Below, piece by piece: positions 1-14,132 of a stretch of 64,000 nt of DNA. Position numbers and translations under genes: made by a program. Below the pieces are notes generated by a model, which made no database searches, was not told the DNA's origin, and saw only the letters and a list, made by a program, of their open reading frames with translations. Every line of letters begins with the position of its first letter. Position 1 is the stretch's first letter. The stretch lies in the IMG/VR virus record IMGVR_UViG_3300016476_000688, positions 3,597-67,596 of that record; one strand, written 5' to 3'. The stretch is from a virus.

Positions 1-17
1 TCAGTCAGAGTTTTCAT
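1..17 (-). CDS. 5' fragment of a leftward gene running off the window (MKTLTD...)
   Basis: ATG at 17-15 with GGAG RBS and a cassette promoter at 42-70. Confidence 0.5.
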
Positions 18-134
18 TTGCTGCGCTCCTAGCTTATATTTTGTATAGCATAGTAGTTCTGTCCTTGCAACAGGCATTTTTTGTTTACATATCAATGAGT
101 TAAATAGCTATGCGCCGGGGTGGTTAACCCCTTG

Positions 135-767
135 TTATCTAAGCTGTTCTTGCAACTCCTCAATTCGAGCTTCAACCGCTGCACGCATCCGCGTGTTTGC
201 TTCCTCTGCGTCAAGATAGTATTCGATATTGGAGAATCCGCTTGACAGGTCAGACTTCACATACCGCCCATTACTGAGACGATACGTTGCGGGGACTCCT
301 TCCTTGTGGAAGTCATAGTAGGAAATAACCTCCTTTTCCACAGTCGAAGCAATCAGTCGCAGCGAATACGAGTCAAACTCGTAAACGCGCGTTCCGAGCG
401 CAAGCCGTTCGCCCTGCACCGGAATCATATCCGGCAGATATTGAACCTTGACCTCGGGAGTCGAAGTCAGTGCAATTTCTGCATCTTGCAGCTTGGTAAG
501 GTATCGCTGCACATTTTCACGCAGTCGGCTGTTCCACAGCGAGCGAATCCGCAGAATACGCAGCGCAAACGGCGTTGTGCGGTGTTTCAGTTCCAGGTAG
601 TCCCGATGCAGCCGAATCGTTTGCAGATTCTGAGCGTGCGCGATAGCATCAGCTTTCCGAAGAAAATAGCTGCTATCTCCTTCCACGATTTCACCGACAC
701 GTTCTTCGATGTTTCCAGCATATGCCCACCAGTAGGTCGGCAGTTCAGATTTCGGAACAGTAAACAT
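135..767 (-). CDS. hypothetical protein (210 aa)
   Basis: ORF 135-800 trimmed to the ATG at 767 behind AAGGAG and the cassette promoter. Confidence 0.8.
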   Translation of the reverse strand: MFTVPKSELPTYWWAYAGNIEERVGEIVEGDSSYFLRKADAIAHAQNLQTIRLHRDYLELKHRTTPFALRILRIRSLWNSRLRENVQRYLTKLQDAEIALTSTPEVKVQYLPDMIPVQGERLALGTRVYEFDSYSLRLIASTVEKEVISYYDFHKEGVPATYRLSNGRYVKSDLSSGFSNIEYYLDAEEANTRMRAAVEARIEELQEQLR

Positions 768-899
768 TAGTATCTCCTTTGCTTTCCTGATGTATCGCAT
801 AATACGCTGAGTGTTGCAAGAGATAAATTACTGTGGATTTTCAAAGTGCTACGTGCCTAGGCGCCGCGGCCCCTAACTACTTGAAGTTAGGGGCTTTTT

Positions 900-1127
900 T
901 CATATCACCTCGAAGTGCGGGATTTTCGTGCAGGTAGCTTGCTCCATTTCGATCAGTTGATCGCCTTCGATGCCGAACAGGTGCCACGGCTCACGAAACT
1001 CCCAGTCGTCGCGGTCCAAATCCCCGTTTGCCCACAGGGTATGAACCTTTGCGTTGATTTCGTCAATGCTGCCTTGCAGGTATTGCGGCATATTCTCCGA
1101 ATCGACGTAGATCAAAACGTATCTCAC
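900..1127 (-). CDS. small acidic hypothetical protein
   Basis: ORF track; overlaps the upstream gene stop (GTGA coupling). Confidence 0.75.
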   Translation of the reverse strand: MRYVLIYVDSENMPQYLQGSIDEINAKVHTLWANGDLDRDDWEFREPWHLFGIEGDQLIEMEQATCTKIPHFEVI

Positions 1128-1357
1128 AGCACGCTCTCCAGTCTTCCCTTGACCACATCCAGCAGATCATACCCGCTGGTCAACAGTTCGGCAATAGCCT
1201 GAATCCGATCAGCCTCGTCCCATTGTGCATACTCGACTTCTGCGGCACGATGCACCCAGTAGACGCTAGGCAGATCATGCGGTTCGTCGATGGTCTGGAC
1301 CTCGGTGAACATGAAGTCGTCACCGCTATCGCGCCAGATTACGGTATAGGTTTGCAT
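1124..1357 (-). CDS. small acidic hypothetical protein
   Basis: ORF track; AAAGGA RBS. Confidence 0.75.
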   Translation of the reverse strand: MQTYTVIWRDSGDDFMFTEVQTIDEPHDLPSVYWVHRAAEVEYAQWDEADRIQAIAELLTSGYDLLDVVKGRLESVL

Positions 1358-1368
1358 CTCTTTTCCTT

Positions 1369-1470
1369 TCAGAGTGTATGGGGCGGGGGAACCGGGATAT
1401 TGCGCCCGTAGATATAACCGATTACGAACGGCATAACCACGATGCCGATAAGTGCCGCGAGAGTCGTCAT
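1369..1470 (-). CDS. 33-aa hydrophobic peptide (MTTLAALIGIVVMPFVIGYIYGRNIPVPPPHTL)
   Basis: Manual translation; fills the gap in the operon. Confidence 0.55.
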   Translation of the reverse strand: MTTLAALIGIVVMPFVIGYIYGRNIPVPPPHTL

Positions 1471-1471
1471 T

Positions 1472-1600
1472 TCAGTCTCCGATGATGGCGAGCGATTCGC
1501 TCGTAGAACCAGTATTGCGGAATTTGTAATCGAAGTCAACAAGTTCCTGCAAGAACAGGTGATTGATGAAGTCGATATATTCTTCGAACGTTACGTCCAT
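1472..1600 (-). CDS. 42-aa hypothetical protein
   Basis: Manual translation; GAGGG RBS directly after the promoter at 1624-1652. Confidence 0.6.
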   Translation of the reverse strand: MDVTFEEYIDFINHLFLQELVDFDYKFRNTGSTSESLAIIGD

Positions 1601-1718
1601 GATGTTTTCCCTCTTGATGATTATGTATAGCGCGATTCGTGCTGATGTGCAATAACAAAAAACGCTGTAGAATCAATGTGTTAGACCCTACAGCGCCGGG
1701 GCGGCTAACCCCTTGTTT

Positions 1719-1910
1719 TTATTCCTTTTTTGCGATCACAACCTCTGGGTTAGTAATGATCTCCCATTTATCTAAGCTGCTTTCTTGCTTAGACCAGGTA
1801 TTACCAAAGATTGTTGCCGCTCTTATAGACTTAAAAGGCCCGTTCAGAATGATTTGTCCATAGCGTGTGACGACTAGCACGTAAGGACCTTCGCCTACGA
1901 GAATTTTCAT
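1719..1910 (-). CDS. hypothetical protein (63 aa)
   Basis: ORF trimmed to the ATG overlapping the upstream stop. Confidence 0.65.
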   Translation of the reverse strand: MKILVGEGPYVLVVTRYGQIILNGPFKSIRAATIFGNTWSKQESSLDKWEIITNPEVVIAKKE

Positions 1911-2107
1911 AGGACAACCGTCAGAGTTTGCCACGAAAAATATCCGTCGGCGAAGCAGCTTTCGATACAGGCTTCAACACTTGCGCGATCCTCGCGGGCA
2001 ATCTCCGCAACGTGCGGATTATTGCGAAGCCATTCGAGTCCCGCGTCGGTAGTGGCGAAGATGATTCCATCCTCGCCAATACCCCATTCGCTCCACAGAC
2101 GAAACAT
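1907..2107 (-). CDS. hypothetical protein (66 aa)
   Basis: ORF track; TAATG coupling. Confidence 0.75.
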   Translation of the reverse strand: MFRLWSEWGIGEDGIIFATTDAGLEWLRNNPHVAEIAREDRASVEACIESCFADGYFSWQTLTVVL

Positions 2108-2238
2108 TATTTTTTCTCCGGTTTCGCGGTCAGGGTCCAGTGGCTGCCGCTGGTTTGCATTTTCGTCACGACCTGAGAAGCCTTGATGCGAGAAGCAATC
2201 TCAGCCTCATCACGGGCTTCCGTAATCTTGTCAGTCAT
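2107..2238 (-). CDS. 43-aa hypothetical protein
   Basis: Manual translation; AAGGAG RBS after promoter. Confidence 0.65.
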   Translation of the reverse strand: MTDKITEARDEAEIASRIKASQVVTKMQTSGSHWTLTAKPEKK

Positions 2239-2343
2239 GTCGTTCTCCTTTGCTGATAAATATTTATAGACCGATTCGTGTTGCATAACAAATGCAAAAT
2301 GTGTAGTAATATCAATAGTTTACGTGTTGTAGCGCCGGGGCGG

Positions 2344-2592
2344 CTAACCCCTTGTTTCTGCTACGGTTTTTCCATTCTCTAGCCGCACCTCGTTAAGGTT
2401 TGCCGGATAGCTTCCTAAGCTGTCAAGCCAGTCTAGGTCAGGAAATAGAGTCTCGCTGCTATCAAAGACTTGATACAGCATAAGCCGCATAATATCGTGA
2501 CCTGTTATGCTATGGTCTTCCATAACAAGCTTGTCATTGATATAAAGGCCTTGCCAATCGTCGCCTTTAACCAAGGTAATTTGGTTTGCCAT
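2344..2592 (-). CDS. hypothetical protein (82 aa)
   Basis: ORF track. Confidence 0.75.
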   Translation of the reverse strand: MANQITLVKGDDWQGLYINDKLVMEDHSITGHDIMRLMLYQVFDSSETLFPDLDWLDSLGSYPANLNEVRLENGKTVAETRG

Positions 2593-2593
2593 A

Positions 2594-2824
2594 TCAGACC
2601 GCCGAGATTTCGAGAATGTCAGAATTGAAATGGCTTTGCAGCGTAGCTACCACGGTTTCCCAGTCTGCAAAACCTTCTCCAGTAGCGGGATCGCCATCGC
2701 ACCACACATCATCATCGCATTCATCGTCGCAGACGACGCTGAAATTGCTATCTTCTTCCAGAGTGCCGTAGCATTCGACGTCGCGGCCTTCGAAGTGGAC
2801 GACATAGACATGAGGGGCTTCCAT
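2594..2824 (-). CDS. acidic hypothetical protein (76 aa)
   Basis: Trimmed to the ATG at 2824 behind AAGGAG. Confidence 0.75.
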   Translation of the reverse strand: MEAPHVYVVHFEGRDVECYGTLEEDSNFSVVCDDECDDDVWCDGDPATGEGFADWETVVATLQSHFNSDILEISAV

Positions 2825-2975
2825 ATGTTTTCTCCTTTGATGATTAACAATAACCCGAATCGCCAGCATAATGCAAGCGCTATTTTGCTGTGTGTTCTCA
2901 ATAGCTTAGCCCATACCGCGCCCCGCGCGCTAAGTGCTTGATATTGCTGCATAATTTCCGTGTTGTTTATGCAAC

Positions 2976-3035
2976 AAAAAAGCCCCTGCCTTGCGGCAGG
3001 GGCTTGACAAGCTAGCCCCAGATCAGGGCTAGCTT
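2976..3035 (-). terminator. Intrinsic terminator (GC stem, GCAA loop, T-run) preceded by a second hairpin
   Basis: agcccctgcc-ttgc-ggcaggggct with A6 on its left; aagctagccc...gggctagctt. Confidence 0.8.
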
Positions 3036-3049
3036 ACCGATTCGGGCGA

Positions 3050-3370
3050 TTACTCGCCCTGCGGTTTCAGGTGGTCGATGAGAGCCTGAATCGCCTCCTT
3101 GGTGGCGTTCATGAACCCGTCCACGGCGAAAGGGGCGACAGCCTCCAGTTCCCGCATGAGTTCCTTCTTGGTCGGCCCTTCGACCTTTTCAGCCTTGGCA
3201 GGCTTTTCAGCCGCCACATACACACCCTCGCGCACGAGTTTCGAGCGCACCGAGCGGACGGCCTTGCCGATCGACTCAGCGATCGTTTCGACCGATTCCC
3301 CGGCCTGATACCGTTCCACGATGGAAGCGGTCAGTTCCTCGGTGTAGTTCACTTTACGTTCAGCAGCCAT
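3050..3370 (-). CDS. A2: T5 A2-like HTH DNA-binding protein, paralog 1 (106 aa)
   Basis: YTEE...IAESIGKAVRSVRSKLVREGVYV; the SVRSKL motif is recalled from T5 A2; near-identical to 7589-7948. Confidence 0.65.
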   Translation of the reverse strand: MAAERKVNYTEELTASIVERYQAGESVETIAESIGKAVRSVRSKLVREGVYVAAEKPAKAEKVEGPTKKELMRELEAVAPFAVDGFMNATKEAIQALIDHLKPQGE

Positions 3371-3544
3371 ATCTCTATCTCCTTTAGCTGGCGTTGCTTT
3401 CCTCTTCAGTGATTCTGTTATACGCGATTCGCAGGCAGTCAGCAACCGTATTTTTCGCTTGACACGCACAAAATCGTATTTTCTTCTGAGAAAAATTGTG
3501 AGCAAAATCAATGGGTTAGGGCCGGGGGCGCCACCCCCTGCAAC

Positions 3545-3772
3545 TCATTGAGCTGCAAGGGTTTTTTCTGCATCATACCAGCCGCGCCACCAGCATCTAG
3601 CGTAAACGTGTCCAGCCTTGTAAGGGCAGGTTTTGGCCCACCCTTTCAAGCGCATATCTCGCCCCGCATTATAGGCGACCTGTTTATTTATTGCAAGTCG
3701 CTCTGTTTCTGTTTTATTGCGAATATGCAATTTGCAACAGACTCGATCCGGTGGACGATTGCGGGAAAGCAA
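3545..3772 (-). CDS. Rmf/CrpP-fold protein (start uncertain)
   Basis: AYNAG..G...CPY......R.WW.GW..A resembles ribosome modulation factor. Confidence 0.5.
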   Translation of the reverse strand: MLSRNRPPDRVCCKLHIRNKTETERLAINKQVAYNAGRDMRLKGWAKTCPYKAGHVYARCWWRGWYDAEKTLAAQ

Positions 3773-3905
3773 TCACATCCCCACGCGGATACGGGCAGCC
3801 CTCCACACCACAAGGCCATACGCTCGGCTGACCTTTTGTTTCAGCCCAGCAATTGATCCCGCAGGTTTTGCAGGTTCCAGTTTTGGTCATAGGTTTTTTT
3901 GCCAT
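3714..3905 (-). CDS. Cys-rich small protein, possible zinc binder
   Basis: CKTC..C...PCGVEGCPY; coupled to the upstream stop. Confidence 0.6.
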   Translation of the reverse strand: MAKKPMTKTGTCKTCGINCWAETKGQPSVWPCGVEGCPYPRGDVIAFPQSSTGSSLLQIAYSQ

Positions 3906-4108
3906 CAGAATCCCTCCTCGGCTGTGTTTTCTCTCACGGTTTGGCGTTGCGTCGCTTTTGAGACATATACGCCTTCCCGCACCAACTTTGACCGAACTAC
4001 AGCCTCGCTGCGACTGATAGTCGCCCCGATCATAGCAGGCGTTGCGCCTTGCTTATATGCTGCGATTATTGCCTCGGTCAACCATTGCGGCCATTGTTTC
4101 CAGATCAT
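3905..4108 (-). CDS. Short A2-like HTH protein, paralog 2 (67 aa, HTH only)
   Basis: IIAAYKQG.T...IG.TISRSEAVVRSKLVREGVYV; true ATG at 4108 behind GAGGG. Confidence 0.7.
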   Translation of the reverse strand: MIWKQWPQWLTEAIIAAYKQGATPAMIGATISRSEAVVRSKLVREGVYVSKATQRQTVRENTAEEGF

Positions 4109-4231
4109 TGCGCCCTCTTGCTGATAACTGTATATCGCATGATTCGCTGTGCATTGCAACACAATAAAAACGTGCAAAATCAATCGGTTAGTGCGATGGG
4201 CGCCCCACCCGCTAAGTGATTGATATTGCTC

Positions 4232-4260
4232 AAAAAAATGTGGGGGCTTACGCCCCCACA
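4232..4260 (-). terminator. Intrinsic terminator (GTAA loop, T7)
   Basis: tgtgggggc-gtaa-gcccccaca-ttttttt on the minus strand. Confidence 0.8.
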
Positions 4261-4991
4261 ACTTCCGTTTCCGGCTTGACATATTGCGGCAAAAATGCCT
4301 TGCCGTCGATCCCGAGTCGGGTGTTGATTTTTTTCCACACCGCGCCAGCAAGTTCCGCAGGGGACTTGACAACGGGCAGACGTTTCTTGCGGGAAAGCGC
4401 CTTGACCAGAATATCCGATTCGATTTCCACGTCGGACCACGCGATATGGCGCTCCTGAAAATCGGCATTGACAAACTCGTAACGATATGCTTCCTCGGCA
4501 GAGGTCGAAACGAATCGGCCAGACGCGCTCGGAGTCGCCACCTTTGCAAAGTGACGCGGGACCGATTCGCCCCAATAATCCCAAATGTCAAGCAATTCCA
4601 CGCGATGTTGCAGCCACCGCGTCACATTGCCGCCCGTCAGAACCGAAACGGTTTCGGGCAAGTATTTGAAATCAAAGGCGGAATTGTAGGCGCAGCAGAT
4701 CATCCGATGGCCCGCCTGTTGCAATTCTGCAATCTGGCGGTTATATTCGCGCCGAACGTCGAGAATCCCAGCCGGACGAATCAGATGCCCATAGGCGTCG
4801 TCAAAATAGTGGCCCAGCTTTTCCGCAAAGAACGGCACATCATGGCGGAAAGCCTCGCGAATCACATACGATCCGCGGCCATACTCGCGCCCGCGCTTGT
4901 CAATAGTTTTCCAAGCAATATCGAACGCGATACGCTTTTTCATCGTGGTTTCAATGTCCGTAACAACGAACAGAGTCGGGGCCTTAGCCAT
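4248..4991 (-). CDS. DEDDh (DnaQ-like) 3'-5' exonuclease (247 aa)
   Basis: ExoI DIET, ExoII AYNSAFD, ExoIII HIAWSDVE motifs. Confidence 0.85.
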   Translation of the reverse strand: MAKAPTLFVVTDIETTMKKRIAFDIAWKTIDKRGREYGRGSYVIREAFRHDVPFFAEKLGHYFDDAYGHLIRPAGILDVRREYNRQIAELQQAGHRMICCAYNSAFDFKYLPETVSVLTGGNVTRWLQHRVELLDIWDYWGESVPRHFAKVATPSASGRFVSTSAEEAYRYEFVNADFQERHIAWSDVEIESDILVKALSRKKRLPVVKSPAELAGAVWKKINTRLGIDGKAFLPQYVKPETEVVGA

Positions 4992-5123
4992 GTTGCAGGT
5001 GTCCTTTGTTTTCTGCTTCCGTGCATTCTGTATCGCATGATTCGCAGACGGTTGCAAGCACAAAAAACGCAGTAAAATCAATAGGTTAGCGGCGGGGGCG
5101 CTGCGGCACCTAAGTGCCTGATT

Positions 5124-5309
5124 TTACTCCTCAATTTCGACGGTCAGACTCAACCGTTCGCACATCGCATCCCACAGACCGATTCGCATCTCTTCAAGAT
5201 ATTCCTCAATCGCTGAGTCTCCTTTTGCGATTACCTCTTCAGGTATTTCTTCGGTCCATGTAGAGTCCGTTCCGGCGAATCCGTAAGACTCGTAAACTTT
5301 AATCTTCAT
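5124..5309 (-). CDS. acidic hypothetical protein (61 aa)
   Basis: Trimmed to MKIKVYESYG, overlapping the upstream stop. Confidence 0.7.
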   Translation of the reverse strand: MKIKVYESYGFAGTDSTWTEEIPEEVIAKGDSAIEEYLEEMRIGLWDAMCERLSLTVEIEE

Positions 5310-5766
5310 CTTCTTCTTGCTCCTCAAGTTCCATGTCAAGCAGGTCTTGGCAGTGGTGGCAGACAGGCTCTGAGCTGAGTTCGTGCGATTCGAGGTTGTC
5401 AACGTGCCAGTGCCAGCCGCAATGCCCACAAGAGGCAATTGCATCCCAGACCAGAGAGTCAATCTTGGATTGATCCTCGATTGAGAGAGCAGAATATTCT
5501 TCACCCCATTCCACATTGAACGATCCGTCAGAATCGCTGATGATTTCTTCCGCGATTTCTTCCAGACTCTTCACATACGCCGGAACGGTGAAAGCATCCA
5601 GAACCGACCGAGTCGTGATTCTCGATACGATCTTATATTTTTGAGCTTCTGTCTCCCTTGTTTCGGTAGCATACTTTTTTGCCAGCATTTCGCTGTCAAA
5701 TACTCCGACCAGTATTTGAGAGTCATCGTCATAGTAGAGTTCGAATTTGATTTCCGTGTCAGACAT
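5299..5766 (-). CDS. acidic protein with C-terminal zinc ribbon (155 aa)
   Basis: CGHCGW...CHHC; AGGAGG RBS. Confidence 0.75.
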   Translation of the reverse strand: MSDTEIKFELYYDDDSQILVGVFDSEMLAKKYATETRETEAQKYKIVSRITTRSVLDAFTVPAYVKSLEEIAEEIISDSDGSFNVEWGEEYSALSIEDQSKIDSLVWDAIASCGHCGWHWHVDNLESHELSSEPVCHHCQDLLDMELEEQEEDED

Positions 5767-5896
5767 TGCAGCCTCCTGAGTTACCCTCTTATTGCATAAT
5801 TTACAGGCCAGCACAAGAGGAAAATGTTGTTAGTTTTCAAAGGTTTAAGGCGCTGGGCGCCGCCCTGCATAACCTATTGATTATGCAGGGGTTTTT

Positions 5897-6025
5897 TCAA
5901 GGCTTGCCGTAAATCTCCTTAAACCGCTTCCAATCGTAACCCGCTTCTTTAAAGCGGATTGCCGGGTCATATCTGTTGGGGCATATTACCAGCCCCACGC
6001 AAATTGCAAATAGCAGATATTCCAT
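5897..6025 (-). CDS. 42-aa peptide with hydrophobic N-terminus
   Basis: Manual translation MEYLLFAICVGLVICPNRYDPAIRFKE...; TAATG coupling. Confidence 0.55.
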   Translation of the reverse strand: MEYLLFAICVGLVICPNRYDPAIRFKEAGYDWKRFKEIYGKP

Positions 6026-6315
6026 TAATATCCTTTCCCGTCGATAATTCCCTGATACACCCCGCCATTTTCTTCGATTTTACGGTCCTCATAAGGACCG
6101 ATAATAACGCGGTTCAGTTCCATTTTAGCGCATTCAAGCGCGCCCACCATTTCATTCACCACGGCGTATTTCAGCCCTTTGCGGCGAATGTAATTGGCAA
6201 CGAACGTGGACACCAGAAAATTCAATTCTCCGGCATTTTCAGGAGTCCAAAGCGTTCCTTCCACCATCAAATCGTCGTGAATGTCGGTGCGTTGCTGTTG
6301 CGGGATGTAGGGCAT
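6025..6315 (-). CDS. DUF6899-like phage protein (96 aa)
   Basis: MPYI...GELNFLV...GALECAKMEL.R....YED.KI.ENG.VY pattern. Confidence 0.7.
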   Translation of the reverse strand: MPYIPQQQRTDIHDDLMVEGTLWTPENAGELNFLVSTFVANYIRRKGLKYAVVNEMVGALECAKMELNRVIIGPYEDRKIEENGGVYQGIIDGKGY

Positions 6316-6316
6316 T

Positions 6317-6757
6317 TTAGGCGACCTTTTGCAGAGTTTCACGGCCACGACGGCCAAGTTGCGAAGCGATAGCGAAGAAAGCACCTTTTACCAGATTGTC
6401 GGTATCCAGCCACGTCCAGAGGTGGTGATGCGTAAATGCCACATCAGAAATACCGTTCGGGCAGATCGAGCCGCACTTGCCGACGGCATACACGGGCTTG
6501 CCCATACCATAGGCCATTCCGACTTCCACGAGCGCACCGCGCTGTTCTTCGGATTGATCCTCACTGTAGAGCAGAACGAAATCGGAATCGCGCACATCTT
6601 CGTAGCACATTTGCCACAGCAGACGCTTGTTATCCGTAACAATCGGATTGTTACTGTCGAGGTCAATCCACCGCGCTTGCACCGGAAGGCCCAGTGTATC
6701 ACGCAGCATCTTGAATTTGTCAGCGTGCCAGATTTTGCCAGCGGTATAGAATTTCAT
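6317..6757 (-). CDS. Nucleoside 2-deoxyribosyltransferase / dNMP N-glycosidase-like protein (146 aa)
   Basis: FYTAG...D.RDSDFVL...GALVEVGMAYGMGKPVY, the NDT/RCL family signature. Confidence 0.75.
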   Translation of the reverse strand: MKFYTAGKIWHADKFKMLRDTLGLPVQARWIDLDSNNPIVTDNKRLLWQMCYEDVRDSDFVLLYSEDQSEEQRGALVEVGMAYGMGKPVYAVGKCGSICPNGISDVAFTHHHLWTWLDTDNLVKGAFFAIASQLGRRGRETLQKVA

Positions 6758-6866
6758 GGCTTTGTTCCTCTCTTGCCGATGATTATGTATCGCATGATTC
6801 GCCAATCATTACAAGAGAAAAGAATTGTTATTTTTCAATGGGTTAGCGGCGGGGGCGCCTCGCCCT

Positions 6867-7076
6867 CTAAGCATCTGATGTTATTGGTTTTTTCGCTGCT
6901 AGTTCGCAAAATCTCAAAACATGGTCGAGTTCCGAAGCAAATTGAATAGCTTGCGGATTGCCTTTGTCAATCTCCCGTTGCACGTCTTCTAGCATGAATC
7001 TAATTTGCAAGAATGCAACACCGCCATCAGAGTTGACAATCTCAACAAGCTTCATTAGTTTTTGCGTAAGTGTCAT
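6867..7076 (-). CDS. hypothetical helical protein (69 aa)
   Basis: ORF; AGGA RBS. Confidence 0.7.
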   Translation of the reverse strand: MTLTQKLMKLVEIVNSDGGVAFLQIRFMLEDVQREIDKGNPQAIQFASELDHVLRFCELAAKKPITSDA

Positions 7077-7127
7077 ATTCAATTCCTAAAATGTGGCAAT
7101 AGCGGGGGTGGCCACCCCCGCTATCAC

Positions 7128-7320
7128 TTCTTACACCTGTCCGATGGACCGGAGCAGTTTTGGCTGATTAGGCCCAACTCACGCACGTTGTCGCTAGTAT
7201 GTTCTCCGTGTAACATACAACCACACTCCGTTTGCCGGAAAACGGAGTAGAAAGCCTCGGCAGCCAACCCTACCGCTGGTATCTCAGTAACTTCCAGTAA
7301 TCACTCTTTCCGTCCTTCGA
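7128..7320 (-). ncRNA. candidate structured non-coding RNA with its own promoter
   Basis: Promoter TTGCAC-N17-TATATT at 7356-7328, no real ORF, several stems, ends in a perfect palindrome at 7099-7124. Confidence 0.5.
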
Positions 7321-7463
7321 TATAAACAATATAAGCGATTCGAAGACAACGTGCAAGCGTAAAGTGAAGGCGACTAGCAAAATAATGTGTAATGAAATCA
7401 ATCATTTAGCGCTGGGCGCGCCCCACCCCCTAACCCCTTGATTTCAAAGGGTTTTTAGGTGAG

Positions 7464-7553
7464 TGACCCGCTGAGGACTTGAACCTCACACCCCCTCTGC
7501 AAAGTTGTCAAGTAGTTGCAGCTACCTTGACAGGGTGGCACCGTGCGCGGGCC
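7464..7553 (-). ncRNA. tRNA-like RNA (canonical acceptor stem and T arm, aberrant core)
   Basis: GGCCCGC/GCGGGTC-A acceptor, TGAGG-TTCAAGT-CCTCA T arm, 10-bp stem with CTGCAA loop. Confidence 0.65.
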
Positions 7554-7588
7554 GTAGGGGCTAGGCGGTTTCCCGCCTAGCCTATCGT

Positions 7589-7948
7589 TCAGGCAGCTTC
7601 CGCAGCCGCTTCATCCTCAGCCGGAGCTTCCGCTTCCGTCTCCAGATGGGCGATCAGAGCCGACAGAGCTTCCTTCGTCGCATTGACGAAGCCGTCAATC
7701 GGCAGATGCGGAGCCAGACCTTCGAGGTCGCGCAGAAGTTCCTTTTTCGTCGGACCTTCCTCGCGCTTCGCTTTCACGGGCTTTTCAGCCGCGACGTAGA
7801 CGCCCTCACGGACCAGCTTGGACCGGACCGAACGGACCGCCTTGCCGATGGACTCGGCAATGGCTTCGACGGTTTCACCCGCCTGATACCGCTCGACGAT
7901 AGCCGCCGTCAGTTCTTCGCTGTAGTTCACTTTCGCTTCCTTAGCCAT
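7589..7948 (-). CDS. A2: T5 A2-like HTH DNA-binding protein, paralog 3 (119 aa)
   Basis: Same motif as 3050-3370; acidic Ala-rich tail. Confidence 0.65.
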   Translation of the reverse strand: MAKEAKVNYSEELTAAIVERYQAGETVEAIAESIGKAVRSVRSKLVREGVYVAAEKPVKAKREEGPTKKELLRDLEGLAPHLPIDGFVNATKEALSALIAHLETEAEAPAEDEAAAEAA

Positions 7949-8128
7949 ATCTCACTCCTATGTGCTGGCTTGTTTCTCTTTCAGTAAGATATGTATAACG
8001 CGACTCACGACGATTCGGCAAGCGAAAAAAGCAGAAAAAGAAGCCTCAAATCGAAAAAAGTTTTGTGTGTTTTCAATGGGTTAGCGGAGGGGGCGCTGGG
8101 CTGGTTAAGCCCTTGATTTACTTTGTCT

Positions 8129-8329
8129 TTAAGCCTCGTCAATATAATCGTCGTCTTCCCAGCCAGCGCTTAGCAGACATTCGTCTGCGCCTTCTTCCGG
8201 GCTCAGACCTTCTTCGTAGGCGTCTCGACTCAGCCAGTCAGGCAACATGCCTTGATCGAGTCCGCCAGTTTTCTTGAGCAGGATTTTATCTACAGCTTTC
8301 ATCCATTGTTCATAGGTCATAGCTTGCAT
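8129..8329 (-). CDS. small acidic phage protein (DUF5419-like, 66 aa)
   Basis: TYEQWMKAVD...LPDW..RDAYE.GLSP.E pattern. Confidence 0.65.
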   Translation of the reverse strand: MQAMTYEQWMKAVDKILLKKTGGLDQGMLPDWLSRDAYEEGLSPEEGADECLLSAGWEDDDYIDEA

Positions 8330-8347
8330 AGTGTTCTCCTGATTTAT

Positions 8348-8423
8348 TGGTAGGCGCGGTCGGACTCGAACCGACAGCTTAAGCATTTTAAGTGCTCTGC
8401 GTTTACCTTTTCGCCACGCGCCC
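8348..8423 (-). tRNA. trnL: tRNA-Leu(UAA), 76 nt, short variable loop, encoded CCA
   Basis: GGGCGCG/CGCGCCT acceptor, GCG/CGC D stem, GAGCA-CTTAAAA-TGCTT anticodon arm, GTCGG-TTCGAGT-CCGAC T arm, ACCA end; own promoter at 8436-8464. Confidence 0.9.
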
Positions 8424-8544
8424 GTTGTTTAATTATTTATAGCTGATTCGCATCCACGCAGCAAGCAATAATTTATTGTGTATTATCAATGGTTTAATGC
8501 GCTGGGCGCCGTGCCTGCTAACCTTTTGAGTTAGCAGGCTTTTT

Positions 8545-8886
8545 CTAGTTGCAGCTTGCGCTGAGAATGTTCCGATACCACGACAGAAGCGGAACGCGCC
8601 AGCCCGTGACCGTAAAGTCACACGTTGCCCCTTCTTTGATGCTTCCGTAGAGGTCGGAAGAATTGAATTTCATTGCCAGAAGGGAGTCGGTGTTCTCGAA
8701 AGTTTCCCGATCAGTAAAGATCAGGTATTTCGATTCTTGTGTCTGGCCTGTGCCAGTCATGATTCGTTCCTTGTCCTGAATCACGACGCCGGACACCGTG
8801 TCCATAGTGGCGAAATGAATCCAGATCTTGGCCGGAACGACGATCAGAAGAAGGCCCACAAAGAGCCAGATATATGCGCGTGTCAT
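8545..8886 (-). CDS. membrane-anchored protein, DUF1523-like (113 aa)
   Basis: N-terminal TM; V.GWR.P.LS.Y.NI motif. Confidence 0.7.
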   Translation of the reverse strand: MTRAYIWLFVGLLLIVVPAKIWIHFATMDTVSGVVIQDKERIMTGTGQTQESKYLIFTDRETFENTDSLLAMKFNSSDLYGSIKEGATCDFTVTGWRVPLLSWYRNILSASCN

Positions 8887-8898
8887 GTGTTTTCCTTA

Positions 8899-9207
8899 TC
8901 AGTGAAGTTTGTGTTCGCGGTCGTCCGAATGTCCACCATTCGAATCGCCACCGTTATCATCGCTTTGACCGCCCTTCGACTTGCCGCCGTTGCTGTCGCC
9001 GCTCGAATCGCCGCCATTCGAATCATCACCGTTGTCGGTCGAATCATCACCGCTGGTAGCCGAAGCGGTTTCACGCCCACCATCTTCCGAAAAGGCGTTG
9101 TTGCTGTAGCACTCCGAGTAAACGGGTTTGCCGTTCACATAGACCACGCAATCCGGCTTAACGCAAGCCATGAGAGCGAGAGGCAGAGAGAGAAGAAGAT
9201 ATTTCAT
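8899..9207 (-). CDS. putative lipoprotein with acidic GDDSNG-repeat tail
   Basis: Signal peptide ending LALMA-C; D/G/S/N low-complexity tail. Confidence 0.7.
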   Translation of the reverse strand: MKYLLLSLPLALMACVKPDCVVYVNGKPVYSECYSNNAFSEDGGRETASATSGDDSTDNGDDSNGGDSSGDSNGGKSKGGQSDDNGGDSNGGHSDDREHKLH

Positions 9208-9246
9208 GTTTTGTTCCTCAGTTCACAAGTCAACTTATGACTTGTT

Positions 9247-9456
9247 TTAGTTGATTTCGAGTTCGAGCTTTTCAAAGCCCTGTTGCACCGTCTGGACGCT
9301 TTCGTGAACCCCGTCAGGGAACACGACGAACATTTCTGTGTAGATCGTTCCGTTGCTGAGAATCTCCGATTCAGCCACGATCCCGCCGACAACCGATTCG
9401 TAAATGGTCGTCTTGAATGTTTGTCCGATCAAGTCAGTCAGCTTGGGCTTGTTCAT
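9247..9456 (-). CDS. hypothetical protein (69 aa)
   Basis: Trimmed to MNKPKL behind GGAGG. Confidence 0.7.
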   Translation of the reverse strand: MNKPKLTDLIGQTFKTTIYESVVGGIVAESEILSNGTIYTEMFVVFPDGVHESVQTVQQGFEKLELEIN

Positions 9457-9567
9457 GGCTGCCTCCGTTTCCGATGATTCTGTATCGCATATACCAGCAG
9501 CAAACACAAGCACAAAAATATCGTTATAAATCAAAGGCTTAGGCCGTGCGGCGCCGCCCCTCCTAAC

Positions 9568-9660
9568 TCATTGATAATAAATGAGAATTTGAAGGGTCAG
9601 GATTGCGACCGGAACCCCGGTGCGAATCAGTTCCATCAGGAAACGAATCTTATTCATCAT
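9568..9660 (-). CDS. 30-aa hydrophobic peptide (MMNKIRFLMELIRTGVPVAILTLQILIYYQ)
   Basis: Manual translation; GGAGG upstream. Confidence 0.5.
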   Translation of the reverse strand: MMNKIRFLMELIRTGVPVAILTLQILIYYQ

Positions 9661-9661
9661 G

Positions 9662-10141
9662 TCAAGCCTCCATCAGCTTTTTGTTGACTTTGATTGCGTT
9701 AAGACACGCGACCCCGATTTTCCGCATTTCTGCAATTACAGGTTTAGCGTCGTCGAACATCACAACCGGAAGGTGTGCGAATTGACGCAGATTGCGGAGA
9801 CGCTGAATCTTGCGGCGCTTGAGTTTAGCGTCCTTGATGTGATTCTCGGACCCGTCGAGAGGACGGCACAGAATCTTGTGCGCGTCAAGCCCGTGGTGGG
9901 CAAGAAAATCGTAATCGTCCTGATTCATTGCACGCGCCGTGCAAATCACGATATAGTTTTCAGAACGATTTAGGCGCTTGAAGGTTTCGGCCAGCGGCAG
10001 GAGCGTATCCCGGAAAATGCTTTCCCGATTCTTCATCGCAAAATATTTTTCGAGGTCCAGAGTCCCGTCAGGTTTGTTCGGGGTCCGATGAGCCGAGTCG
10101 ATGATCGTTTCATCAAGGTCGAAAACTACGATACGCTTCAT
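9662..10141 (-). CDS. HAD-superfamily phosphatase (159 aa)
   Basis: VVFDLDETI (DxDxT), ICTAR, K, MFDD motifs. Confidence 0.85.
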   Translation of the reverse strand: MKRIVVFDLDETIIDSAHRTPNKPDGTLDLEKYFAMKNRESIFRDTLLPLAETFKRLNRSENYIVICTARAMNQDDYDFLAHHGLDAHKILCRPLDGSENHIKDAKLKRRKIQRLRNLRQFAHLPVVMFDDAKPVIAEMRKIGVACLNAIKVNKKLMEA

Positions 10142-10271
10142 GTGAGCCTCCTTTGATGATTCTTTATCGCACGATTCGACGGGGAACGCAACAGGAAAAT
10201 ATCGTTTAGTTTCAAGGGGTTAGCCAACGCGGCGGCCCCCTTGCTAACGCATTGATTAGCAAGGGTTTTTC

Positions 10272-10466
10272 TTACAGCGGCTGCCACACGATGGAGTTGA
10301 TGACAAGGCAAGTCCCGTTATCGTCCGGCGACAGATCGCCGTGGTGAAGGGTGAAGTATGCGACGGCATCTTGAAGGCTTTTGCCATAGATGGTCTGCTC
10401 GTAGCGACCTTCGATAATGCCAGTGGCAGCGACCGCAGTCCAGATGAAGTGGTAGTTGCCTTCCAT
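10272..10466 (-). CDS. hypothetical protein (64 aa)
   Basis: Trimmed to MEGNYHF behind GGAGGA. Confidence 0.7.
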   Translation of the reverse strand: MEGNYHFIWTAVAATGIIEGRYEQTIYGKSLQDAVAYFTLHHGDLSPDDNGTCLVINSIVWQPL

Positions 10467-10614
10467 AGCGCGTCCTCCTTGTTTCGGTGAGACTGTTATG
10501 CCGCGATTCGCAGAGCGTGTCAAGTAGCTAAAAAAATGCTGTAAAATCAACGGTTTGGCTGGCCGGGCGCCCCGTCGCGTAACCTATTGATTACGCTAGG
10601 GTTTTCTCTAAAAA

Positions 10615-10795
10615 TTAAGCATCTAAAATCACATCTTACCATTAGAAACAAGGGCTAAGATGTGTGCGGTGTTGTGACGGTCCGCTAACCTTCGTTACAC
10701 TGCCAAGTCATGAGTATATTATCCAACTAGGTTCCTTGTCCGCTTTTTTAGATCAACCAAACAGCGCCGTTTACGGCGAGTCTCGAGATTTAATC
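10615..10795 (-). ncRNA. candidate structured RNA in a 3' intergenic gap
   Basis: No ORF; ATCTAAAA/TTTTAGAT closing stem, CACATCTTA/TAAGATGTG hairpin, CGCCG-TAAA-CGGCG hairpin. Confidence 0.4.
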
Positions 10796-10800
10796 ATTTG

Positions 10801-11001
10801 CTAGCTTCCCAGCCCAAAAAGGGCAAACCCTGCCACCACAATATTCGTTACCAGCAACGGGTTATCGTGCTGTTTGATAGCATGGCCGATCCATGCTGCA
10901 CACGCCACCAAACCCACGCCCATAGTCAGCTTGACGCTGAACCCCGTAGACAGAAGCGCCATTTGACAAACAACGCCGATTGTCCCGATAATTCCGAACA
11001 T
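10801..11001 (-). CDS. small multi-pass membrane protein (66 aa)
   Basis: Three hydrophobic segments; AAGGAA RBS. Confidence 0.7.
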   Translation of the reverse strand: MFGIIGTIGVVCQMALLSTGFSVKLTMGVGLVACAAWIGHAIKQHDNPLLVTNIVVAGFALFGLGS

Positions 11002-11016
11002 GCTTGATTCCTTGTA

Positions 11017-11250
11017 TTAGTCGCGCACGCCGTAGGCGCGACGCATGTGAGCGTCCTGCACGCCCTTTTCCCATTCCGCGTAGGCCCGATCACCAGCCGC
11101 AACCGAGTCAGCCACGGCACGCTTGCCCTCGCGCATCGCACGGTAGATCGTGCGGTCGCTCTCAATCGCGCGAGTCCCCTGCGCGATCACCGTCGCCTTG
11201 CCGCCGCGGGCGGCGAATTCTGCTTTCAGAGCTTCGAGGTCGAGGGCCAT
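11017..11250 (-). CDS. hypothetical protein (77 aa)
   Basis: ORF; AAGGAG RBS. Confidence 0.75.
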   Translation of the reverse strand: MALDLEALKAEFAARGGKATVIAQGTRAIESDRTIYRAMREGKRAVADSVAAGDRAYAEWEKGVQDAHMRRAYGVRD

Positions 11251-11382
11251 GTCTATCTCCTTTGCTGATGATTATGTATAGCGTGATTCTATGCAGGCAT
11301 CAAGAACAAAAAATGCTGTAAGATCAATGGGTTAGCGCCGGGGGCGCCGCCTAGCGTAACCTATTGATTACGCTAGGATTTT

Positions 11383-11682
11383 TCATTGATTGCAGATCAA
11401 CACCTCCACCAGTTCTTTGGCTTCTTTCAGCCCCAGACGCTGAGAAAAAGCATCGCGCAGAATCTTGATAGCGGCGATGCGATTGCCGATCTGAGCCTCA
11501 CGCCGCGCGTCACGAAGTCGGTCAGCGTTGTAGCCCGGCGCGTAGACAACCCCGACCTGCATAGACGGGAGTTCGCCAACAAGCTGAGCAGCTTCGGTCA
11601 ATGTTTTGGTAATATAAGCCTTGCCGTGATCATCCACCAAAACAAAGCCGTTCTGGGCGACAGTGATTTCTTCGATACGCAT
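11383..11682 (-). CDS. protein with C-terminal ribosomal bL12-like domain (99 aa)
   Basis: IAAIKILRDAFSQRLGLKEAKELVE resembles the L7/L12 motif KIAVIK.VR..TGLGLKEAK.LVE. Confidence 0.7.
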   Translation of the reverse strand: MRIEEITVAQNGFVLVDDHGKAYITKTLTEAAQLVGELPSMQVGVVYAPGYNADRLRDARREAQIGNRIAAIKILRDAFSQRLGLKEAKELVEVLICNQ

Positions 11683-11804
11683 AGCATTCTCCTTTGCTGA
11701 TGATTCTTTATATCCTGCATTGCAGTTACTTACAACAAGAAAAAAATACATATAATCAAAGACTTAGCCTACGGGGCGCTGGGCTGGCTAAGCCCTTGTT
11801 TTGA

Positions 11805-11981
11805 TTACATTTTCCTCAACTTGTTGACAATCACATAGGCGTTTGCTTGATCCGGGCCGTTTGCAACCCAGTTGCGGATACGACGACCGCTGGCATAGGT
11901 GACATAAGATGCCACAACCCAAACACCGTTCTCGCATTCAACCTCATAGCAGGTATCAATTACAGCGCCGTTGTTAAACAT
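11805..11981 (-). CDS. hypothetical protein (58 aa)
   Basis: Manual translation MFNNGAVIDTCYEVECENGVWVVASYVTY...; GGGAG RBS. Confidence 0.65.
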   Translation of the reverse strand: MFNNGAVIDTCYEVECENGVWVVASYVTYASGRRIRNWVANGPDQANAYVIVNKLRKM

Positions 11982-12263
11982 CTCTGTTCTCCCTTTTGAT
12001 AATTAATACTAGCATACGAATCACCACGTAGCAACACGATTCTTTCCTTGGAATCTCAATGACTTACGTGTTGCTGCGCCACTTACTGCAAGCCATTGAT
12101 TTTGCACGATTTTACAGTTCTGCACAAACCATAAAATAATGCGTTCCAGCCAGAATCTCACTTTTCCAGTCTCGCACCATTGCCAAAAAGCAACTATAGT
12201 GCGCTTCTGTATGTCGCCTGTCTACTGTTCGCACGATATAGATCATTTTTTAACTTCGGTTTA

Positions 12264-12608
12264 TTACTTGATCCGCTTGAGGGTCTTGGCGACGCTCCCC
12301 TCCTTCACCCCAAGGGTGAAGGCGACGGCGACGATTTTCTGATTCACCGCCCAGACCGAGTCAGCGACGGCGGAGTCGCGCTTGGCAAATTCCCAGTTAT
12401 TGCCCGTCTTGGCAATGTTGCAGCCTTTGCAAAGGCATTGCAGATTGTCCGCCGTAGCCTTGCCGCCTTTGCTTTCCGCGATAATATGGTCGCAATCAAG
12501 GAACGGGGCATAATGCGCGCCGCCACCGAACCCGCAAGCGCGGCAGATATACCCGTCACGGGCCAGAACCGTTGCGCGAACCGAGGACGAGATTGCAGCT
12601 TTTGCCAT
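12264..12608 (-). CDS. HNH endonuclease (114 aa)
   Basis: CRAC...DCDHII..SKGG....NLQCLCKGCN..K. Confidence 0.85.
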   Translation of the reverse strand: MAKAAISSSVRATVLARDGYICRACGFGGGAHYAPFLDCDHIIAESKGGKATADNLQCLCKGCNIAKTGNNWEFAKRDSAVADSVWAVNQKIVAVAFTLGVKEGSVAKTLKRIK

Positions 12609-12787
12609 GTTGGCCTCCTGTGCCTATGCCTTACAATCGCGCATTTTCTCGCGATTCGCAAGACATAAACAACGGATAGACCAAAATAAGTTTTGGCCCG
12701 CGTCAACGATTCCGCTTGACTACGCCCAGGGTTCTGTGCTACCCTGCTGGCGCCAGGTGTGGCTGATTCGCCACACCCTCTTTTTAT

Positions 12788-13030
12788 TTACGCCACCAGC
12801 TTGACTTTCGCGGCAAACTCATCTTCGACCGTCAACGAGAATGGAAGGCCGATTCGCTCTCCGTCCTGAGCCGTGCGGATCGTGACGCCCATCAGGTCCA
12901 GTTCCGACGCCGCGAGGATCTTACGACGCGGCACCCACAGCGGGCGAACCCCATCCTTGCCAGCATCCGCCTGCGACACGAAGGCCACCGCCGCTTCAGT
13001 TTCCCGAACCACGAACCCTTGGACCTGCAT
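12788..13030 (-). CDS. hypothetical protein (80 aa), paralog of 14607-14846
   Basis: G(F/Y)VVR.T.AAVAFV...GV.PLW.PR.KI...TAQDGER.G.P shared. Confidence 0.8.
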   Translation of the reverse strand: MQVQGFVVRETEAAVAFVSQADAGKDGVRPLWVPRRKILAASELDLMGVTIRTAQDGERIGLPFSLTVEDEFAAKVKLVA

Positions 13031-13183
13031 CTCTATCTCTCCTCTGTTTCGATGATTCTTTATCGCATAGTCTGGCCTGATTCGCAAGAGCCTAGACTGT
13101 ATAAAGTTTTGTTTCAGCGCACATTATGCGCTTGACAACGAACATGATTCGGGTGTAAAATACTGGCGCGTGATTCGGGCGAA

Positions 13184-13339
13184 TCACTCTTCCTCCTCTT
13201 TCTCGTCAATGAGTTCTTTAACCTCTTCAACGCTGTTTCCGTTCACCTGCCATTCCTGCGACTCGCCGTCAAACCGATCGTTGTGGGTCGCCACGAACCC
13301 GATCCAAGCATCTGCGATGGTCCAACCACGGTATTGCAT
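13184..13339 (-). CDS. acidic 51-aa protein
   Basis: Manual translation MQYRGWTIADAW...VEEVKELIDEKEEEE; AAGGAG RBS. Confidence 0.7.
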   Translation of the reverse strand: MQYRGWTIADAWIGFVATHNDRFDGESQEWQVNGNSVEEVKELIDEKEEEE

Positions 13340-13402
13340 CTGTCTCTCCTTTGTTCCGATGATTCTTTATCGCATGCTTTGCCGTGATTCGCAAGAGAAA
13401 TC

Positions 13403-13618
13403 TTAGATGCGGGCCAGCCTTTCCCGCAGCATGGCATCATTCCATGCATCCCAGAGTTGATTCACGGTCTGGTTCATCTGGTCATATGCGCGTTCCAGAC
13501 CAGCGATCAGCAGAGGATTCGCATTGCGCGCACGAGCCTTGAGCAGCTTGGCATACAGCGAGTCGGCGCGGGCAGCGGCTTTGAGCATGGCGGCGTTGGT
13601 TTCTTGCGACAGGTTCAT
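13403..13618 (-). CDS. helical hypothetical protein (71 aa)
   Basis: ORF; AAGGAG RBS. Confidence 0.75.
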   Translation of the reverse strand: MNLSQETNAAMLKAAARADSLYAKLLKARARNANPLLIAGLERAYDQMNQTVNQLWDAWNDAMLRERLARI

Positions 13619-13749
13619 GGCTATCTCCTTCTGTTAATTATATATCGCATAGCGCCGCATGATTCGCAACAGAAAAAAATCGTTGTAAATCAAGGGCTTA
13701 GCCCGGAGGGCGCGGCCCCTGCTAAATGCTTGATTTAGCAGGGTTTTTC

Positions 13750-13938: not shown

Positions 13939-13939
13939 A

Positions 13940-14080: not shown

Positions 14081-14132
14081 TTTCCAACTCCTCGGTTTCA
14101 TACTGCTTTTATACTTCGATTCGGCTCTAGTG

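Follow-up and report, generated by a model that had tools for sequence, protein, structure and literature searches.

An array of rigidly spaced dyads with IHF-type half-sites upstream of small genes in an uncultured freshwater phage

In the PeSLs of T4-like phages, a stem-loop rich in G and then in C is combined with an AT-rich stretch and a strong early promoter, and these elements bring about modular shuffling (PMC2839356, PMC4122927). A second known system that needs to be considered is the binding site of integration host factor (IHF), with the consensus WATCAANNNNTTR, in which CA and TT form the conserved core and flanking A/T elements set the affinity (PMC10380432). In a stretch of viral DNA of 64,000 nucleotides, “the window,” which comprises bases 3597 to 67596 of a linear IMG/VR viral contig of 74,644 bp (G000), a repeated element was found that has features of both. 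It is a dyad of two facing IHF-type half-sites across a fixed GC-rich spacer of 22 bp, and it is located upstream of nearly every cassette of small leftward genes. Judged from the sequences, the chances are about even that this dyad is the upstream part of a composite, PeSL-like early regulatory cassette that carries a double IHF-type architectural site. It would thus be related to two known kinds, IHF-dependent promoter architecture and PeSL-like mobile regulatory cassettes, and would not constitute an entirely new system.

The PeSLs come closest to it in their composition and in their role in evolution. Both elements are composite intergenic repeats of about 100 to 170 bp with a sigma-70-type early promoter and a Shine-Dalgarno (SD) sequence, and both flank small genes of mostly unknown function in a variable region. 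PeSLs also act as recombination points at which cassettes are added or removed, and the metagenome contigs discussed below suggest that the dyads may do so as well. On the other hand, there is no apparent sequence homology to the PeSLs, the phage possesses T5-like head and tail genes and not those of a T4-like myovirus, and the hairpins associated with the dyads face in the antisense direction. A rigid dyad with IHF-type boxes is not part of the PeSL descriptions.

When the window was searched with the pattern WWTCAA-N4-TTR-N22-YAA-N4-TTGAWW, eight exact matches were obtained, compared to none in 100 dinucleotide-preserving shuffles. With up to two mismatches, 20 copies appeared between positions 90 and 13735. 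A first-pass annotation of the window had claimed 20 intergenic copies with a constant 22-bp spacer; their coordinates were recovered exactly, and the spacer had this length in all 20. Two matches with three mismatches, at 28617 and 48259, were at the chance level (2.06 expected). Three extra copies are located left of the window at contig positions 2351, 2477, and 3176, giving a total of 23, which span contig positions 2351 to 17331. A profile hidden Markov model (HMM) built from these 23 copies found no further copy in the contig, so that the predicted confinement to the terminal region held: all copies reside in the “arm,” a region of about 15 kb composed of small leftward (minus-strand) genes. 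Every copy received a higher HMM score on the plus strand, opposite to the strand of the genes, which means that all 23 copies share one orientation.

The full unit comprises 76 bp and reads A6-N8-WWTCAR-N4-TTAG-(GC-rich 22 bp)-CTAA-N4-YTGAWW-N8-T6. An A-run at positions −13 to −8 and a T-run at +9 to +14 extend the symmetry beyond the boxes, and the two halves share a single position profile that includes these flanks. The spacer has a G+C content of 86% and is G-rich on the 5' side of each strand. Conserved blocks are centered at about −20, −12, 0, +12, and +20 bp from the axis. The initial statement that the N positions drift freely was not borne out: the spacer is biased in its composition, and the N4 stretches are G-rich. 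The distal N positions pair with the flank to form a hairpin in about 40% to 55% of the copies.

To find relatives, IMG/VR was searched first with a pattern that included the central GCGC, which gave 22 loci on 19 contigs, and second with a conserved arm protein of 247 amino acids (aa), which added 12 contigs. About 190 distinct copies are present on approximately 31 related contigs from freshwater metagenomes, always in arrays. Relaxed scans of the first loci and of five whole records revealed arrays of 8 to 19 copies in one block of about 10 kb per record. Conservation of the spacer in relatives had been set as a test, and 94 of the 97 strict half-site pairs of the relatives possessed the 22-bp spacer. 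One genome each of 185,579 bacterial and archaeal species (596 Gb) yielded one isolated single match, in Spirosoma.

The center of the dyad is less uniform. The GCGC on the axis, at element positions 23 to 26, is present in 19 of the 20 window copies as the first-pass annotation had described (GCGG at 10210), but this is not a general property, since it was found in only 127 of the 188 distinct dyads of all contigs. A sister clade kept the half-sites and the 22-bp spacer with GGGGCCCC-like centers, in which the G/C boundary is shifted by 1 bp. The axial GCGC is clade-specific, and this weakens any reading of the center as a nick site or as the target of a center-binding protein.

To avoid circularity in the comparison with IHF sites, dyads were located by one half plus the center, and the other half was then scored. 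The resulting unconditioned half profile was W1 0.93, A2 0.60 or T2 0.29, T3 0.81, C4 0.99, A5 1.00, A6 0.89 or G6 0.10 (R6 0.99), T11 0.96, T12 1.00, and A13 0.91 or G13 0.08 (R13 0.99). This is the IHF consensus with the same degeneracy pattern at W1, R6, and R13, in agreement with the suggestion that the boxes fit this consensus. The strict full consensus was present in 70 of 178 halves and the CA..TT core in 169 of 178. Strict consensus sites numbered 28 in the 16-kb arm but only 2 in the other 56.6 kb. Also as suggested, an A-tract lies about 8 bp outside the core, as an A6 run at −13 to −8, and it does so on both sides.

The H' site of phage lambda has the same A6-N8 arrangement upstream of its core and extends over 35 bp in the crystal structure. 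If the footprints were of this size, two IHF proteins would cover approximately positions −17 to +17 and 32 to 66, with 14 bp free between them, and the promoter-side footprint would lie against the −35 motif. Each half of the dyad shares with the H'-type site of lambda attP the same three parts at the same spacing (A6 run, 8 bp, WWTCAR-N4-TTR) and the same conservation hierarchy, with invariant CA and TT and W/R degeneracy at positions 1, 6, and 13 (PMC10380432). Unlike lambda H', the element contains two such putative sites facing each other across the fixed spacer, and it occurs more than 20 times per genome, beside promoters and not at a recombination site. No gene for a phage-borne HU or IHF protein was found in the contig and five relatives, six genomes that are all partial.

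The dyads are coupled to promoters. Along the direction of transcription, the order of the parts is upstream stop codon, A-run, half-site, spacer, inverted half-site, T-run, −35 motif, −10-like motif, SD sequence, and start codon. This composite intergenic cassette has a size of about 170 bp, and the repeats span 120 to 170 bp. A TTGnnn −35 motif at +19 or +20, leaving a gap of 18 to 19 bp, was present in 95 of 155 distinct family copies. The first-pass annotation had counted 16 dyads at this distance from a −35 hexamer, and automatic calling gave 15 of the 23 contig copies, plus a few that the script placed elsewhere. A −10-like hexamer (TATAAA, TATACA, or GATAAA) follows 17 bp after the −35 motif, and the start codon is located at +68 to +80, about 72 nucleotides past the element, with an AGGAG-type ribosome-binding site (RBS) at most dyads. 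The −35 motif at this position, the T-run, the SD-linked start codon, and the variable cassette genes agree with a PeSL-type promoter.

Minor spacing classes have the −35 motif at about +31, +40, and +62, which are offsets from the main class of approximately whole helical turns. The +62 class includes, with at least two members, orthologous promoters of a gene for an A2-like helix-turn-helix (HTH) protein in different phages. A conserved insert resides between the dyad and the −35 motif in the HTH gene promoters (3440-3505 and 7990-8070 in the window and about 1200-1265 in the related locus L003). Its length is about 43 bp at 3440-3505 and slightly less in front of the second HTH gene; the copies at 3440-3505 and in L003 contain TTTTGTGCGTGTCAAGCGAAAAAT, and the insert may serve as an operator for autoregulation. 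Left of most dyads, the promoter spacer has a recurring GAATC/GATTC motif.

Five leftward promoter repeats of the arm possess no dyad, which indicates two classes of promoters in the arm. These repeats head two paralogous genes for proteins of about 80 aa and other small genes.

Whether the dyad acts as a folded structure or is read as duplex DNA was evaluated with 155 distinct copies. For mirror positions (i, 49-i), the frequency of pairing equals that predicted by the column composition, and the 48-mers fold no better (−15.6 kcal/mol) than chimeras of unrelated halves (−16.0 kcal/mol). No covarying pair stood out in an all-against-all column scan, and Rfam contained no matching family except tRNA-Leu in window positions 1 to 16500. 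A hairpin or cruciform of the whole dyad was rejected, with pairing at the composition level and chimeras that fold equally well, as was a selected stem-loop in the spacer (−7.31 kcal/mol, compared to −7.25 kcal/mol for shuffles of the same composition). Because there is neither mirror covariation nor an excess of folding, the boxes of each half seem to be recognized on their own, and the simplest reader would be a protein that binds double-stranded DNA. As far as can be judged from this pattern, the element is very probably a duplex-DNA protein site coupled to a promoter.

The distal half behaves differently when its flank is included. Together they reach −9.35 kcal/mol, compared to −6.04 kcal/mol for chimeras, whereas the promoter-side half shows no folding signal (−3.17 versus −3.16 kcal/mol). 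The distal hairpins use at least two registers, with the flank pairing with TTAG plus the spacer or the N4 stretch pairing with the spacer. A distal hairpin in a fixed register was rejected, since one register was found in only 12 of 155 copies and several are in use. Overall, hairpins are present in about 40% to 55% of the copies. A terminator pattern of a hairpin followed by a U-run was found in the antisense direction in 63 of 155 copies, compared to 13 of 155 in the sense direction, and an independent terminator scan detected an antisense hairpin in 11 of the 20 window copies. These distal hairpins may end divergent or antisense transcription ahead of the upstream gene. In copies without a hairpin, the A/T-runs still matched at 3.4 of 6 positions, compared to a background of 1.5, and in copies without a nearby −35 motif at 4.1 of 6; because they are kept where hairpin or nearby promoter is absent, the A/T-runs are part of the dyad itself.

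The hairpins raise the question of whether the element might be a terminator, an attenuator, or an RNA-stabilizing structure at the end of a cassette, that is, a PeSL-type stem-loop in which the boxes are merely features of the loop and tail. Besides the better folding of the distal half and the 63 copies with a U-run, the 34 terminator-like sites in 16.5 kb (19.5 expected), 11 of which overlap dyads, fit this explanation, and so does the poly-G then poly-C composition of PeSL stem-loops, which are also found near an AT-rich stretch and an early promoter (PMC2839356). It is nevertheless very unlikely. Most of the hairpins face the wrong way for the preceding genes and thus do not match the sense-terminating stem-loop of the PeSLs, and they occupy several registers in only a part of the copies. 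The proximal half is equally conserved yet has no folding signal, the column pairs do not covary, the spacer folds no better than its shuffles, and no Rfam family matched. The conserved loop sequence and rigid length would be needless for a terminator.

Gain, loss, and exchange of cassettes were evaluated by comparing the arm with contigs of four other metagenome runs at 85% likeness. One sequencing run labeled as RNA was probably DNA. Joints at which cassettes were skipped or reordered had 18 of their 44 ends within 12 bp of a dyad, compared to 9% expected (p about 1e-8). When ends that might be multi-mapped, possibly as a mis-mapping to a repeated variant of the distal half, were removed, 8 of 32 ends remained at dyads (p = 0.006). 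A 119-bp module of dyad plus promoter in front of the tRNA-Leu gene (8430-8548) was replaced by 9 nucleotides in three other runs, which indicates that it was gained or lost as a unit. A contig of run X2 lacked the cassette for a 64-aa protein between the dyads at 10210 and 10545 and had a hybrid dyad where the flanking parts meet. In two runs, the promoter regions adjacent to the dyads at 6833 and 11322 were joined together. Dyad 8071 was found fused directly to the end of the tRNA gene. The ends of blastn alignments with relatives were not enriched at dyads (19%, compared to 18% expected), a weak test because these relatives are only 65% to 80% identical.

The first-pass annotation had considered the dyads as a “landing pad” for recombination. 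The clustering of joint ends fits a passive, homologous form of this idea; a recombinase or integrase to support an active form was not found, since the contig contains no tyrosine recombinase and no match to PF00589. In an active form, a specialized enzyme would recognize the dyad and move or exchange the cassettes. This enzyme could be a site-specific recombinase or a nickase of the T5 type cutting at the axial GCGC, and the IHF-type sites would serve as accessory bends as in lambda attP. IHF sites flank the core sites of known recombination systems, the arm contains a gene for an HNH endonuclease, and several hybrid dyads among the clustered joints switch their partner at or near the center. 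The major-nick consensus of T5, R/GCGCRGG (PMC3517423), also contains the GCGC.

This enzyme-target explanation is highly improbable. The GCGC occupies the center of only 127 of the 188 distinct dyads, and the sister clade has GGGGCCCC-type centers with their shifted G/C boundary. The center is palindromic, whereas nicks in T5 are restricted to one strand, and nothing in it corresponds to the RGG of the T5 consensus. Some of the joints mapped to the center can be explained by a distal-half variant (repeat family D13) that is common to several dyads, the alignment ends showed no excess at dyads, and no tyrosine recombinase is encoded. Ordinary homologous recombination between the 120- to 170-bp repeats is enough to explain the joints. 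A T5-type nick site on one strand was rejected as identity of the center, which is the palindrome GGCGCC without RGG in one clade and differs from it in the sister clade.

Integron attC sites are similar to the dyads in being imperfect inverted repeats at the boundaries of small cassettes, with GTTAGC/GCTAAC-like boxes. They vary in length, act as a folded single strand, separate promoterless cassettes, and need the integron integrase. An identity with attC was rejected, since the dyads show no excess of pairing between the halves and have a fixed length, each cassette has a promoter, and there is no integrase match to PF00589. In the RIB/RIP elements (BIME-1) of Escherichia coli, which are found at the 3' ends of transcription units, an IHF site is enclosed by two REP palindromes in inverted orientation (Boccard & Prentki 1993, cited in PMC4550694). 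Like the dyads, they are extragenic repeats next to gene ends in which IHF-type sites occur together with palindromic, GC-rich DNA. Their order is REP-IHF-REP and not IHF-GC-rich-IHF, and they are chromosomal and not coupled to promoters.

Taken together, the following explanation is proposed. One heterodimer of host IHF would bind to each half of the dyad, producing a sharp bend at both ends of the GC-rich rod. The promoter-side IHF site would abut the −35 region, and the resulting architectural upstream element would activate each early promoter, insulate it, or do both. The distal half would, in about 40% of the copies, provide an intrinsic terminator against antisense transcription into the upstream gene. 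Since no other DNA in the arm is repeated, the modules would also be the places where cassettes are gained, lost, and exchanged by homologous recombination, in the manner of the PeSLs of T4-like phages. IHF is the most likely candidate for the binding protein, with odds that are about even.

Several points weigh against this explanation and need to be considered. IHF does not account for the obligatory inverted pairing at a fixed distance, nor for the selected G+C richness of the spacer and the GGCGCC center of one clade. The presence of IHF in the host is an assumption, since these phages are known from freshwater metagenomes. There is no WATCAANNNNTTR site in the first 12 kb of T5, so that the use of IHF is no general trait of T5-like phages. 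No promoter accompanies the two terminal dyads of the array, and together with the promoters without a dyad this indicates that dyad and promoter are separable. The argument from helical phasing has few independent cases, because the +62 class holds orthologues of the HTH gene promoter. The −10-like hexamers end in A and not in T, which leaves the promoter assignment at the level of a pattern; this A, along with the GAATC/GATTC motif, characterizes an unusual promoter class that may hint at the host or at a further factor. Finally, the contigs with joints are short and were compared at 85% likeness, and repeats by themselves attract alignment ends.

Alternatively, the dyad may be the operator of a phage regulator, for instance of the A2-like HTH paralogues encoded in the arm. 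An oligomer on one face of the helix would then switch off or coordinate all early promoters, and the match to IHF sites would be coincidental. This is a possible explanation, although not a probable one. The conserved blocks lie at distances from the axis that are close to whole helical turns, and pairs at a fixed spacing are explained better by an oligomer than by two independent IHF dimers. No other arm genes are shared as widely as those for the A2-like HTH proteins (19 of 22 loci), which have weak matches to HTH_58, sigma-70 region 4, and the PHROG annotation “DNA binding protein”; the outer boxes contain TTGA, the start of the −35 hexamer, which is recognized by sigma region 4. Moreover, the shut-off of pre-early genes in T5 needs the phage gene A1 (GenBank note for A1).

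Such an operator would, however, leave other features without explanation. The half is asymmetric, with TCAR outside and TTAG inside, and displays the degeneracies of IHF sites plus an A-tract at the H' distance, a match that should rarely occur by chance. The boxes are constant across clades, although the arm proteins are only 40% to 80% identical among the relatives and operators usually drift with their regulators. The center, where contact by a symmetric oligomer would be expected, is not conserved in the sister clade, T5 has A2 yet no such sites, and a site center near −78 would be unusual for a repressor.

The coordinates of the dyads, of the genes they head, and of other features of the arm are compiled in Table 1.

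Table 1. Dyads and associated features in the window (48-bp dyads; leftward genes are marked with a minus sign)
Feature	Position	Strand	Gene(s) headed	Remarks
Dyad 1	90-137		129-aa gene, start at window position 17	Short plus-strand hairpin 117-131 in right half
Dyad 2	839-886		210-aa gene, 135-767 (−)	Plus-strand terminator-like hairpin 868-895
Dyad 3	1671-1718		Four small genes, 900-1600 (−)	Only copy of the 23 with clear sense hairpin plus U-run
Dyad 4	2310-2357		Small genes, 1719-2238 (−)	
Dyad 5	2896-2943		76-aa gene, 2594-2824 (−)	Separate sense terminator upstream, 3005-2980
Dyad 6	3506-3553		A2-like HTH gene, 3050-3370 (−)	−35 at +61; conserved insert of about 43 bp between
Dyad 7	4178-4225		Cassette including 63-aa Cys-rich gene, 3714-3905 (−)	Bidirectional terminator just upstream, 4239-4260
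Dyad 8	5076-5123		Conserved 247-aa gene, 4248-4991 (−)	
Dyad 9	5835-5882		155-aa gene, 5299-5766 (−)	Plus-strand terminator-like hairpin 5863-5890
Dyad 10	6833-6880		146-aa gene, 6317-6757 (−)	
Dyad 11	7396-7443			−35 at +40; no RBS-linked open reading frame after the dyad
Dyad 12	8071-8118		Second A2-like HTH gene, 7589-7948 (−)	
Dyad 13	8484-8531		tRNA-Leu, 8348-8423 (−)	Within 119-bp module 8430-8548
Dyad 14	9529-9576		Three-gene cassette, 8545-9456 (−)	
Dyad 15	10210-10257		Dmp-like HAD phosphatase gene, 9662-10141 (−)	Center GCGG; plus-strand terminator-like hairpin 10238-10265
Dyad 16	10545-10592		64-aa gene, 10272-10466 (−)	
Dyad 17	11322-11369		Genes, 10801-11250 (−)	Plus-strand terminator-like hairpin 11350-11377
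Dyad 18	11754-11801		99-aa gene, 11383-11682 (−)	
Dyad 19	12054-12101		58-aa gene, 11805-11981 (−)	
Dyad 20	13688-13735		71-aa gene, 13403-13618 (−)	Plus-strand terminator-like hairpin 13717-13743
Example promoter (dyad 17)	−35 TTGATG 11298-11303; −10-like TATACA 11275-11280	−		ATG 11248-11250
Dyad-less promoter repeats	Near 12636, 13062, 13369, 14363, 14884 (12636-14912)	−		Repeat families D7, D8, D15
tRNA-like gene	7463-7553	−		91 nucleotides; directly upstream of dyad 7396
HNH endonuclease gene	12264-12608			

The contig has a CheckV completeness of 65%. Beyond the arm, a siphovirus structural module fills the rest of the window and encodes a protease-capsid fusion, L-type and J-type tail proteins, and, at the position of the tape measure gene, an open reading frame of 1741 aa without a Pfam match. 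The closest cultured relatives are T5-like Demerecviridae with a capsid identity of about 33%, which infect Gammaproteobacteria; strong SD sequences are present in the arm. Searches with megablast and blastn found no nucleotide similarity of the arm to GenBank phages, and a search for host-like genes by way of a glycosyltransferase gave nothing informative. The G+C content is about 50% in the early arm (window positions 1 to 16000) and about 38% in the structural part (16000 to 64000). A contrast in G+C content as a trait of the family was rejected: the arrays of relatives range from 41% to 52% G+C and hardly differ from the DNA around them, which makes the sharp step a peculiarity of this phage.

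The arm encodes a homologue of the T5 protein Dmp, of the HAD phosphatase type (32% identity, E = 4e-16), two A2-like HTH proteins with weak matches to T5 A2, HTH_58, and PHROG 1725, and many further small proteins of unknown function, in addition to the tRNA-Leu and the HNH endonuclease. HTH proteins, the 247-aa protein, and the Dmp-like protein form the shared core of the arm in the family, and many other cassettes are variable. The label “pre-early” given to the cassettes in the initial description has the Dmp homologue and the weakly matching A2-like genes in its favor. No homologue of T5 A1 was found by tblastn. Judged by its gene content, “pre-early-like” is a reasonable name for the arm. 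The 247-aa protein is the product of the most conserved arm gene, with 63% to 85% identity in 27 IMG/VR contigs and an end fragment on a 28th. It contains an N-terminal DIETT motif and has no Pfam match; its sole PHROG match is 20187 (unknown function). The tRNA-like gene in Table 1 was predicted by ARAGORN with an undetermined anticodon, and it scored below the threshold of the Rfam tRNA model.

The first-step-transfer region of T5 (AY543070) is similar to the arm with respect to its leftward small genes, the dmp homologue, and the A2-like DNA-binding proteins. The injection stop region of T5 contains paired DnaA boxes and long inverted repeats (bioRxiv 10.1101/866236). Both phages also possess non-coding DNA with repeats past the point where the array of genes stops. 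The element itself was considered as a T5 element and rejected, being absent from T5; the T5 repeats are clustered in untranslated regions and not placed one per promoter. At contig positions 1900 to 2540, the array ends with the two promoter-less dyads at 2351 and 2477, which are 126 bp apart, followed by a non-coding stretch with two copies of a direct repeat of about 30 nucleotides. The related locus L012 possesses an equivalent terminal pair of dyads at 5232 and 5350. The non-coding stretch could be the counterpart of the untranslated repeat regions of T5.

To understand the biological meaning of the array, the paired sites can be considered as a unit. To our knowledge, a rigid two-bend promoter module has not been described for phages of the T5, T4, or lambda type. 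It is conceivable, albeit unlikely, that the IHF-type sites of each pair necessarily act together, as a nucleoprotein unit with two bends, at each early-cassette boundary. This unit would be a topological and transcriptional insulator as well as an enhancer. About 20 strong promoters could then fire independently on freshly injected, unconstrained linear DNA, and the portability of the unit would make cassettes exchangeable between co-infecting phages. If this were true, it would be a new class of phage promoter architecture, in which a nucleoid protein of the host serves as a constant structural component.

If IHF or another protein binds to the dyads, this phage family would have standardized its early promoters on a rigid two-bend module. 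With its invariant contacts and fixed spacer, the 76-bp module would be a test object for the question of how architectural proteins activate or insulate closely packed promoters. It would also be an independent case of the PeSL principle, by which composite repeats both express and shuffle accessory early genes, and a second case of this type would suggest a general solution in large lytic phages. By means of the motif, the early arm of this uncultured group of freshwater phages can be recognized and further members can be found.

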